Origin: Octopus vulgaris
Taxonomy: Eukaryota
Reading direction: 5' to 3'
NCBI GenBank assembly: GCA_951406725.2
Contig: OX597820.1
Span: forward strand, 16,864,001-16,928,000
Length of the DNA stretch: 64,000 nt
Positions within the stretch are counted from its first letter, which is position 1. Each line of letters opens with the position of its first letter. The notes under the pieces are model-generated. The model searched no databases. It was not told the DNA's origin and saw only the letters and a list, made by a program, of their open reading frames with translations. The translations under genes were made by a program, and so were the position numbers. Of the stretch, positions 1 through 61,872 are shown in pieces.

Positions 1-592
1 ACCCCAAAAATATCGAAGCATACACCACAATCATACAAAACATCAGTCTACTGTCAACAGAACCAAAAATGAAAAACATTATAAACACACACAAAATCCT
101 CAAATGTAAAAGGCAACACAAATTTAAAAAAAACTCTTGACAAATACCAAACTTCACACACCACATCCACCCCCAGCAGTTAAAAAATGTGCACGCCCAA
201 ACTGTGACACCTGCCCCTTCCTACTTGAAGGCTCTGAATTTATCTTCAAACAAGGAACGAAGTTTAAAATCAAGACCAACTTCTCCTGTTCCTCCGAGAA
301 CCTTATCTACGTTCTCACATGCGCCGGTTGCCAACATAATTATGTTGGACAAACGAGCCTCCCGTTATGTAAAAGATTAGCGGTGTATAAAGAACAAATA
401 AATCTCCCGGAATACCGGCAAATCCCACTGAGTGACCACATAGACTCATGCGCTAAAGACAAAAATCCCAAATTCTACATATTCCCCTTCTACGAATGTA
501 AAGACGGAATCAACACACAGGAGAGAATTAACAAGGAGAATCTCTTTATAGAAAAATTCAAAACGCATCTTAATATGCAAACTCCTCGTTGA
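1..592 (+). mobile_element. Penelope-like element, C-terminal GIY-YIG endonuclease fragment (ORF 137-592; upstream part runs off the window)
   Basis: Cys linker CARPNCDTC, then NLIYVLTC-x6-YVGQT-x6-R and C-terminal E/N (RINKENLFIEKFKTHLN), as in PLE GIY-YIG domains. Confidence 0.85.
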
Positions 593-5940: not shown

Positions 5941-6510
5941 GTATGTATACATATATTTTATTTATTACACTATATATATATATATATATATATAGTGTAA
6001 TAAATAAAATATATGCATACATACAAACATATATGTACGTACCTACATCTACATGTATATATACATGCATATATAAATATATATACGTGAGTACAGGACA
6101 CTACAAATAGACGTATAACTCAACGAGAAACGAAAACGTAAAGACAAACATGGAAACGGACCTTTTTTTTTAACAATGAAAAAGCAGAGTACAGGACAAA
6201 CAACACAAGAATAATTCCCCTTCATCAGCTGTCCCTAGTACGACTCCATGCGTGTTTCGAAGGTGAGGACAGAACACGACTCGTCGAACTAGCCCTTCCT
6301 GCGAAAGAATTAAATAAAATTCCGTTGCAGAGGGGTAAAAACAAGGAAAGAAAAAAATGTGACAAAAACAGGACGTAAAAACGATACAAATAAAATTACA
6401 AAATAAAATACAAAATGAAAATACAATTACAAAAAAATACAGTACAAGAAATAAAGACAAACAAGAAAACAAACAATGAGGGTCTTTTTTGGCCTCGACG
6501 AAGAAAGATG
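5941..6510 (-). mobile_element. Family J non-autonomous PLE-like element, copy 1
   Basis: Homologous to about 56640-57085; inverted arms 5941-5970 and 5995-6024 around (TA)n; carries the permuted HHR. Confidence 0.7.
6217..6292 (-). ncRNA. Candidate non-circularly permuted hammerhead ribozyme, copy 1
   Basis: CUAGUUCGAC gagu CGUGU U CUGUCC uca CCUUC GAA ACACG caugga GUCGUACUAG GGACAG CUGAUGA a GGGG; stem III CGUGU/ACACG, stem I CUGUCC/GGACAG, stem II CUUC/GGGG. Confidence 0.7.
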
Positions 6511-55830: not shown

Positions 55831-56585
55831 CTTATTTATAAATCTATGAGTAGTGATTTGTCCGTATGTGTGTGTGTGTGCAAATAGATATGCCCAAGGT
55901 GTAGTTAAAAACGTATCAGATGTTTTCGTCAGTACACCAGCATACATAAATTTGGGTAGGGTTTATAACGATATTGTTTTTCTCTCGATCCGCTTTTAAA
56001 CATATTTACTTTAACTAATTCTTGTTGTGCTCGTATTAGTGTGAAAGTGTCTGTCTACTGATAGATGTTCTAGATCAAAGGCGGTTTCCCAAATAAGCTT
56101 ATAACCAGAATTTAACCTTTATCTCATGCATTACATTGATTTACAACAATTTTTTTCATAGTGTTCTTGTTGAATACAAACATATATGTGTACAAGTTCA
56201 TATGCGGGAAGTAATACACATAATCGATAGAGTCGGTTTATCAACATATACGTTAATGGTTTTGAGTATATGACATATAAGAACCAGTAAATTTTAAAAC
56301 GCAAATAAACATTATATAACATGACGAAATAAGCACTTGATAAGAATATATGACGAAGATTATAAATACATGTATAGTTGTGGGTGTGCGCGTGTTTGTT
56401 TTGATATAGAATTATATGTAAAGTCAAATATTAATTGAAGCAATTAACTAGTGAATCATATTTATTTTCCTGCTACAAGGAATATATTGGTAGTGACTTC
56501 GAAACTTCGGTTTAGTTACCTTTGTCAGAATACATATACACCCACATGTACATGCATATATACATATATGTATATATAAAAACTT

Positions 56586-57501
56586 ACTTGGAGAAGAAGT
56601 AAAAAGAAAACGACGCGTGGCGTTCAATCATATAATAACAATTTAATAAATAAAACATATGCATACATACATACATACATATATGTACATACCTACATCT
56701 ATTTGTATATATACATGCATATATGAGTACAGGGTACCACAAATAAACGTAGAACACAACGAGAAACGAAAACATAAAATCAAACAAGGAAACGGACTTT
56801 TTTAACAACGAAAAAAACAGAGTACAAGACAAACAATACAAGGAATATTCCCCTTCATCAGCTGCCTCTGTTTCGACTCAATGCGTGTTTCGAAGGTAAG
56901 GGCAGAACACGATCCGGCCGAAACAGTCCTTCCTGCAAAATGAATTAAATAAAATTCTTTTGCCGAGGGGTAAAAAAAGTGACAAGAACAGGACGTAAAA
57001 GCAATACAAATGAAGAAAAAATACAGTACAAATAAAGAATAACAGGACAAGGAAACCAACAATAAGGGCTTTTTTAAAGCCTAGACGGTGGAAAAATTCG
57101 TTAGAACGCATTCTGAAGATCGGCTTGCGGAAGACAGAAAAGAAAACTGTGTTGACTTGTTGAAAGCAGCGGGCAGAAAGAAAGTTAGTAGTCCTCCTGT
57201 CAGCGGCCAGAGAGAGGAGGAGGAGTGAGAGAGAGAGAGAGGAAAAGAAACCAGAAAGGGTGAAAAATAAGAAGGAGAGAGACAGGTAGAGAGGAAGACA
57301 GACAGGCAGGGAGGAAAGGTCAAGTAAAGAGTTAAGAGTGCGCGTCATAATTATTATAATAAAAACTTGGAGAAGAAGAAAAAAGAAAACGACGCGTGGT
57401 GTTCAATCATATAATAACAATTTAATGCATACTTATATACATATAGATGTAGGTATCTACATATATGTATGTATGTATGCATGTTTTATTTATTAAATTG
57501 T

Positions 57502-61645: not shown

Positions 61646-61871
61646 GGAGTAAACACATAAATGTGAAACAAAGTGGAAAAAAGAGTACTCAAATACCAGT
61701 GGTAGAGTAATATGCTTTATTTTAAGCAGCAGAAAATTCAACAAAATCTGTTACTCTGAGTTTCTCGTTGCCGTTCATCAGACAGTTTTTGCTAGCAAAA
61801 ACTGTCTGATGAACGGCAACGAGAAACTCAGAGTAACAGATTTTGTTGAATTTTCTGCTGCTTAAAATAAA

Positions 61872-61872
<1 letters not shown>
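61643..61872. mobile_element. Family G element in (TA)n with a perfect 158-bp palindrome (61715-61872)
   Basis: Arms are exact reverse complements around GCTAGC (61791-61796). Confidence 0.9.
61802..61839 (+). ncRNA. Minimal type I hammerhead, family G (mirror copy 61748-61785 on minus)
   Basis: cugu CUGAUGA acg gcaa cga GAAA cuc a gag UA acag; predicted cut after A61835. Confidence 0.75.

Follow-up and report, generated by a model that had tools for sequence, protein, structure and literature searches.

The motif that occurs in two copies in the window (the whole stretch of 64,000 nucleotides analysed here) is probably a rearranged hammerhead carried by a non-coding Penelope-like element, with predicted self-cleavage between positions 56906 and 56905, a stem II that is likely completed by a short 5' leader, and an opening between A9 and G10.1. 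With slightly less assurance, sequence comparison leads us to favour a broader reading, in which the motif would be an active ribozyme and the seventh natural wiring of the hammerhead. Its chain would open within the catalytic junction, between A9 and G10.1, and it would occur in more than 10,000 copies in an octopus-like genome and also in an ostracod Naiad.

Layout of the motif and its host element

Both copies lie on the minus strand, and their parts are given here in the 5' to 3' order of the RNA. Copy 2 begins with the leader GAAGG (56928..56932, G10.1 being 56932), the proposed 10.x strand of stem II, which has five Watson-Crick pairs to 56892-56896. The 5' strand of a clamp helix (56917..56926) adjoins the leader and pairs with 56868-56877. 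Block S (56900..56911), for which covariation is seen, comprises the 16.x strand of stem III (56911-56907), H17 as a U at 56906 and the 1.x strand of stem I (56905-56900), with the predicted cut, 56906/56905, inside it. A crossover of 3 nt from stem I to stem II (56897..56899), visible in the sequence and the mark of a non-circular permutation, leads to block G (56884..56896), in which the 11.x strand CCUUC (56896-56892) and GAAA (56891-56888) are followed by the 15.x strand of stem III. The 3' strand of the clamp (56868..56877), again with covariation data, adjoins stem I, and the final segment (56855..56867) contains the 2.x strand of stem I (56867-56862, the A at 56867 being a private change) and the core CUGAUGA (56861-56855). 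Directly after A9 there is a small hairpin (56841..56854) of five pairs with a variable 4-nt loop, whose GGGG doubles as a rival stem II strand; across 20 representatives 94% of its cells are paired, with no double change. Copy 1 (6217..6298) has the same parts, with the leader at 6298-6294, the clamp at 6292-6283 and 6244-6235, GAAA at 6258-6255, the core at 6228-6222 and a predicted cut at 6273/6272. The 12-mer CTGATGAAGGGG has two exact matches within the window, one in each copy.

A preliminary description had compared the two copies (minus strand, 56926 to 56850 against 6292 to 6217), and all of the pair differences that it listed are present in the sequence, as are its invariant segments and variable linkers. 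Two of its three compensatory changes are fixed differences between subfamilies: stem I pair 4 changes from U-A (31/31 in the subfamily of copy 1) to C-G (38/41 in that of copy 2), and outer pair 3 from A-U (30/31) to G-C (39/41). The third, outer pair 4 from G-C to U-A, is not fixed: the 41 copies of copy 2's subfamily have C-A 18, U-A 8, U-C 7, C-C 6 and C-G 2 here, a mismatch in 31, and the U-A of copy 2 is thus a minority state at a mostly unpaired position. The change at outer pair 9 from A-U to G-U is as claimed, and that at pair 6 from U-U to U-A is also present, but the U-U is itself polymorphic in copy 1's subfamily (20 U-U and 11 U-A, n=31). The distal stem I pair is indeed lost in copy 2, by private decay (C-G in 38/41), and the cut between 56906 and 56905 follows from the GUU triplet, with U16.1 at 56907 and U17 at 56906. 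The pseudoknotted hammerhead fold that was proposed is retained here, but it was incomplete: the 5' leader most likely supplies a strand of stem II, the motif reaches 6 nt further 5' than was described, to the leader at 56932-56928, and the outer helix is better read as a clamp between stems I and II.

The repeat that carries both copies, referred to below as family W, is Penelope-like, dispersed through the genome and non-coding, with a unit of about 780 bp. The copy 2 element occupies 56577..57424 on the minus strand, corresponds to about 1.09 units and ends in (TA)n; beyond it, an inverted 5' piece derived from the element's 3' end and then a (TA)n tract lie at 57425..57498 on the plus strand, an arrangement typical of Penelope-like elements (PMC8557442). 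The copy 1 element, as read from the sequence, is 5'-truncated and lies on the minus strand between (TA)n tracts at 5993..6498 (ends approximate). A sequence resembling a splice donor, GTAAGT, occurs near the start of the unit, in the tail region (window 56581-56588, minus strand), and is also found in family Q, described below. Penelope elements have introns in their 5' UTRs.

In the host genome (2.8 Gb, 227 contigs, rich in microsatellites) three exact W patterns gave 1,108, 3,590 and 1,714 matches, compared with 0, 19 and 0 for the reversed patterns. The last two of these differ at N7, hence W has at least about 5,000 copies. Among 41 copies of copy 2's subfamily, 5' ends start between -44 and more than 660 nt upstream of the cut, 10 copies carry an inverted 5' piece, and near +270 the sequence runs into (TA)n in 25 and carries a short tail instead in 9. 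Tandem spacings in W are mostly 770-840 bp; most copies are monomers, with a few dimers. The traits of W, namely 5' truncation, partial tandems, inverted 5' pieces and microsatellite targets, are those given for Penelope-like insertions in PMC8557442, and together with the 3' tail they identify W as a non-autonomous Penelope-like element.

The W unit does not continue into an open reading frame at any of 30 loci, and in two loci (L091 and L147) TA tracts lie between W and the reading frames beside it. No autonomous partner encoding a reverse transcriptase and endonuclease was found for W, or for family Q, in the genome loci searched. A young Penelope-like element with a C-terminal endonuclease, present at locus L091, was considered as a partner and rejected, having a different 3' UTR in the 30 loci read. 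The 3' part of this young element is found at window 3-586 and at L091:2705-4963; its 150 scored hits at 99-100% identity, many with open frames of about 753 codons, make recent activity likely, and its 3' UTR is without the split motif.

Four further families carry the motif in this genome. Family N (529 exact matches) has it approximately 950-1,400 nt downstream of a Naiad reverse transcriptase, on the same strand, in 6 of 30 reverse transcriptase hits, and is the only family found as an RT-bearing, autonomous Penelope-like element. Family Q is a second non-coding element, with a 769-bp unit and 5,421 exact matches (control 0); an example is L349:697-790 (oriented). Families Q and R and the single T copy were met by chance in fetched loci; R rests on two copies and T on one (plus strand, L179 near 2247, L269 near 131 and L307 near 2999), and the helix sequences at these sites differ from those of the other families.

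The strand that forms stem II

The CCUUC before GAAA in W is fully complementary to the GAAGG leader, which lies one base 5' of the clamp helix. Corresponding leader and 11.x strands were found in all five families: GAAGG/CCUUC in W, GACACC/GGUGUC in N, GGCUGG/YCAGCC in Q, GAGCA/UGCUC in R and GUGCC/GGCAC in T. These helices differ in sequence among the families but are still complementary, and in each the leader supplies the closing pair G10.1-C11.1 next to G12. Five Watson-Crick pairs were present in the leader window in 159/202 W, 15/26 N and 20/32 Q copies. In control windows such pairing was found in 0-2 copies for four windows further 5' and in none for four windows 3' of the core, the figure for W being 0-1 copies. 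A scan of 963 kb of loci for the whole motif gave 262 occurrences; the same sequences reversed gave none.

The covariation of the leader helix lies between families, with almost none inside W. The W helix is nearly invariant, with one double change, found at three duplicated copies (L258, L263 and L268, contig C31) that represent a single event in a segmental duplication. A search for other stem II sequences inside W gave 73 hits, almost all of them single private changes. A sixth leader pair is C-G in 26 and A-U in 10 W copies, belonging to separate subfamilies, and is open in most others.

The main competitor for the 11.x strand is the sequence after CUGAnGA. One reading takes W as a classical type SGC hammerhead, in which the GGGG that follows an unpaired A pairs with CUUC and the leader instead splints the downstream UUCCUU. 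The four pairs, G-C, G-U, G-U and G-C, are all possible in 195-209 of 220 W copies, and an unpaired base after A9 followed by G10.1-C11.1 is both the Penelope-type pattern (PMC4209133) and a feature of the SGC constructs of Eckert (PMC10085705); in addition, the duplex of the leader with the downstream strand has a computed stability of -5.3 to -9.6 kcal/mol in the six W sequences shown. However, two tandem G-U pairs are required, the GGGG helix reaches only -3.1 to -4.5 kcal/mol and the leader helix -5.7 to -6.5, the fourth G of GGGG is replaced in several copies, and subfamilies differ in the downstream CC but not in the leader GG. This reading is also impossible for the ostracod Naiad and for families Q and T. 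In Q the strand after CUGAnGA makes the first-position pair in 1 of 34 copies, and in both Q and T it cannot pair with 11.x; in N it makes only two pairs, the third position failing in 25 of 28 copies and pairing in 3. N and R retain the G-G after the extra base, and in R, as in W, a 10.x pairing by the post-core strand is possible but weak. Overall we regard the classical SGC fold of W as rather unlikely. Since the W leader helix is nearly invariant and GGGG can also pair, the choice of strand in W rests on the other families, and Q, where the post-core strand cannot pair, is the clearest case of a split fold.

Alternatively, stem II could be composite or switchable, the leader and the post-core strand competing for 11.x in such a way that cleavage is delayed or gated during transcription. 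In W both pairings and both sinks (the hairpin after A9, and the leader with UUCCUU) are conserved with similar computed stability, and the many copies that extend across the cut site require some uncleaved or re-joined template. Yet Q, T and the ostracod Naiad are without a second partner for 11.x, and no covariation links the two states, which makes a switch, in our estimate, a still less probable account than the classical fold.

We return to the leader as the 10.x strand. If CUGAnGA is joined on paper to the leader, type CSG results and the outer helix becomes its stem I-II clamp. The clamp adjoins both stem I and the leader helix in 13/13 examples compared. Unless the 10.x strand is the leader, however, this helix cannot be the one that connects stems I and II at their free sides; in W the outer helix does not touch the post-core strand. 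The motif is therefore most likely, on the present comparison, a type-CSG hammerhead opened between A9 and G10.1. Its linear order is not C, S, G, which arises only as a circle opened at 9/10.1, and no unsplit CSG motif was found in 1.45 Mb of fetched loci. The strands run 5' to 3' as 10.x leader, clamp strand, cleavage block, 3-nt crossover, 11.x-GAAA-15.x, clamp partner, stem I and CUGAnGA, which would make the motif a circular permutation of CSG at a position thought unbreakable. The scheme of PMC10085705, with its six described hammerhead arrangements, assumes that the CUGAnGA block cannot be split, and according to that paper the alignments known contain at most two inserted bases there. 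An extra base is nonetheless commonly tolerated at the 9/10.1 point (PMC4209133), which would make a break there plausible.

Two other pairings were tried and rejected. A type I hammerhead formed across tandem units does not fit, as rotating C-G-S cannot give S-G-C and the post-core hairpin is not followed by GAAA. The downstream UUGUCC, considered as a partner for stem I, does not change with stem I.

Catalytic hallmarks, copy ends and selection

In both window copies the CUGAnGA and GAAA core is intact, with a GUU triplet and a 3-nt crossover; across examples from five families the block order is S-G-C and the crossover measures 1-5 nt. U16.1 is present in 163/164 copies and the U16.1-A15.1 pair is fixed. 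H17 is U in 125, C in 25, A in 14 and G in none of the copies scored (164 of 169 leader-bearing copies), with G in 1/220 under a looser filter, and in family Q each of the four bases occurs at N7 (A22 U6 G5 C1, n=34). Rfam hammerhead models gave no match in the region, with two weak unrelated hits in 56760-57100, as is expected for a permuted block order; in a scan of the whole window the 150 hits listed of 387 were all driven by repeats. In nested folds only, both window copies extend stem III across the cut site, with z-scores of -0.16 and 0.07, so that the GUU triplet may be drawn, by this modelling, into an overlong, misfolded stem III. Single copies in the genome, among them copy 2, are undergoing decay and are not necessarily active.

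Reverse transcription of cleaved RNA should give copies that start at the cut or shortly after it. The 5' ends of genomic copies were therefore mapped for the first 70 Q and 70 W matches listed, of 2,430 and 832 respectively, using patterns downstream of the cut. In these two unrelated families 47/140 ends fall at 0 to +37 and 11/140 at -38 to -1, and the interval from -4 to +9 holds 21 of the 67 ends found between -100 and +30 (binomial p 4e-6 relative to a uniform spread), with the proviso that some mapped ends are internal deletions or twin copies. An earlier GAAA-anchored set, comprising partly the same loci, placed 19/119 ends at -4 to +12 and 10 at -45 to -5. Several copies start within 3 nt of the cut, in three families. 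The pile-up peaks at about +7 to +12 and could derive partly from stalling of reverse transcriptase at the structure; lying just downstream, it indirectly supports the predicted position of the cut. In about half of the copies the sequence continues for over 100 nt beyond the cut, hence uncleaved, circular or jumped templates are also used.

It is very doubtful that the motif is a catalytically dead or very slow structure derived from a hammerhead and kept as a signal for reverse transcriptase binding or pausing. A break at 9/10.1 is without precedent in the literature examined, metazoan Penelope hammerheads cleave poorly in vitro (PMC4209133), and stalling could itself yield clustered 5' ends. 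However, the conservation obeys catalytic rules, H17 avoiding G, N7 being free and U16.1-A15.1 fixed, and the copies that begin within 3 nt of the cut come from three families.

For a cleaving ribozyme with the leader as its 10.x strand, we infer the tertiary fold, the catalysis and the role in transposition as follows. Stems I and II would be kept parallel by the crossover together with the clamp, replacing the usual loop-loop contact. Standard hammerhead chemistry would then cut after H17, with G12 as the base and the 2'-OH of G8 as the acid (PMC11300833). Cleavage would set the 5' end of the element RNAs, which a Penelope-like reverse transcriptase-endonuclease acting in trans may copy into (TA)n sites.

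Selection on the source elements for the pseudoknotted fold, as had been suggested from the two copies alone, holds in a larger sample of genomic copies: stems I and III covary. Of 220 W-class records, 183 had the leader and flanks; they form 20 clusters of two or more and 17 singletons. Where a cluster has at least three members, its departures from the commonest pair comprise 78 breaks, 69 one-sided changes and 1 double change, representing ordinary decay after insertion. A tree of 14 clusters was built from the flanks only (identity 0.56-0.97), with clusters of two and the cluster of three duplicated copies excluded. On this tree parsimony gives five events in stem I pairs 1-5, all double changes, and five in stem III pairs 1-4, none of them breaking. 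As 10/10 branch events keep pairing and changes within subfamilies mostly break it or leave wobbles, selection in the source elements is supported. In 20 representatives 93.2% of cells pair, compared with 83.5% in shuffled sets, and 16 pairs are changed on both sides, compared with 10.9; 0/500 shuffles reach either value, a result that is not a probability because related sequences inflate it. Slid controls paired in 42-49% of cells. Stem I pair 4, read by eye in the first 100 of 687 matches, is U-A in 66, C-G in 32, C-A in 2 and U-G in none. The clamp, or outer helix, is the loosest of the helices and tolerates mismatches (88% paired). The comparison thus supports a motif that is real and was selected in the source elements. 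That the double changes arose by chance in a repeat whose RNA has no functional structure, from common descent or from decay without selection, is scarcely credible: the relatedness of subfamilies does make shuffles overstate significance, and outer pair 4 is indeed unconstrained, but 0/10 branch events break stems I or III, compared with 78/148 private deviations, and five families of different sequence share all four helices.

Other hammerhead-like sequences were also seen. At window 61719-61872 two arms form a perfect inverted repeat, head to head, and contain CUGAUGA...GAAA in the canonical order, like a minimal type I Penelope hammerhead. Motifs of canonical order from other repeats (L248, L146, L169, L333 and others) comprise 16 distinct strings, some of them loose, and the reversed controls gave no such strings in the fetched loci. 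A metagenome scan returned five matches, none with a cleavage block and all judged to be chance, and viral contigs gave no matches. Among sequencing runs, 20 entries under 4 organism labels contain part of the stretch, none of them listed as RNA, and the four compared with it consist of contigs.

Naiads and comparison with known systems

Naiads are described as lacking a canonical hammerhead, although eight consensus sequences are marked 'HHR_half_core', with no fold given (PMC8557442). We read the 3' ends of the Naiad consensus sequences by eye (PMC8557442 supplement, File S5; some record names were inferred from file order). One motif family of this genome matches published octopus Naiad consensus ends almost exactly. 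Naiad_Ovul and the ostracod Naiad-4_Dst have the split form with 6-bp leader helices, and in Naiad-4_Dst the post-core strand is unable to pair. The squid Naiad_Esco has the split form with 4/5 leader pairs. Naiad_Obim, from a second octopus and unflagged in the publication, also has the split form. Complete, unsplit CSG folds were seen in Naiad_Parc, Naiad-3_Nbra, Naiad_Hpol and Naiad_Smim, from three nematodes and a spider. No motif was found in the part of the Naiad-3_Dst consensus examined, and no split form was seen by eye in the Omin, Adux and Skow-1 Naiads. Naiads have the fold and the (TA)n target in common with W and Q; the W flanks have no clear similarity to Naiad-type loci.

To our knowledge, the non-circular hammerhead permutations described so far come from environmental sequence, apart from a single doubtful case in bacteria. 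In the openly accessible literature searched we found no report of a hammerhead split at 9/10.1, nor of permuted hammerheads in Naiads or cephalopods; the term 'type-SGC' occurred there in PMC10085705 only, and the available part of one preprint (bioRxiv 10.64898/2026.07.22.740005) makes no mention of octopus or pseudoknot. A split form with covariation across families would mean that the best-studied ribozyme can be opened at a further point, of use in designing multi-strand or switchable versions. The 'half-core' motifs of Naiads would then be explained, the view that these elements are without hammerheads would need revision, and thousands of ribozymes in invertebrate genomes would be escaping descriptor searches. 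On the question of whether Penelope hammerheads cut in vivo, the step in 5' ends near the predicted site would be genomic evidence. If true, and together with the nematode and spider CSG folds, this Penelope clade would be using non-circularly permuted hammerheads across phyla to set the 5' ends of its RNAs.

Among known systems, the Penelope pLTR type I hammerheads (PMC4209133) resemble W in placing a hammerhead within a Penelope-like terminal repeat, and the non-LTR retrozymes (bioRxiv 10.64898/2026.07.22.740005) in being non-autonomous units in partial tandems. Type I motifs of both kinds are circular in order, have a tiny stem III and need dimers (PMC4209133; bioRxiv 10.64898/2026.07.22.740005). 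In contrast, the W motif has a stem III of 4-6 bp, a non-circular order and mostly monomeric units, and W lacks the tandem type I units that mark non-LTR retrozymes. In the pseudoknot (PK) hammerhead of PDB 8YDC (PMC11300833) the helix II region is likewise a pseudoknot and the core is kept, but G10.1-C11.1 follows A9 on the same strand and the block order is circular.

With the 'half-core' system of Naiads (Craig et al. 2021, PMC8557442) the octopus motif shares the split architecture, seen in the 3' UTRs of Naiad_Ovul, Naiad_Obim and Naiad-4_Dst. Stem I of Naiad_Ovul is identical to that of copy 2's subfamily and both target (TA)n; unlike Naiads, W has no open reading frame. Type-SGC, or HRIMA-1 (Eckert et al. 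2023, PMC10085705), has in common with the octopus motif the block order S-G-C, a short crossover, for which the 3 nt of copy 2 is the typical linker length, and the full core, as well as a helix joining the other sides of stems I and II. They differ in that its 10.x strand comes directly after CUGAnGA, that of the octopus motif coming most likely from the 5' end, and in that it is described from metatranscriptomes only and from no genome of a known organism, whereas the octopus motif belongs to a high-copy animal retroelement. Type-CSG, of which two metagenomic examples are given and both cleave (PMC10085705), has the same circular connectivity and the same clamp position once the ends of the octopus motif are joined at 9/10.1; it opens at the end of a helix, whereas the octopus motif most likely opens between A9 and G10.1.
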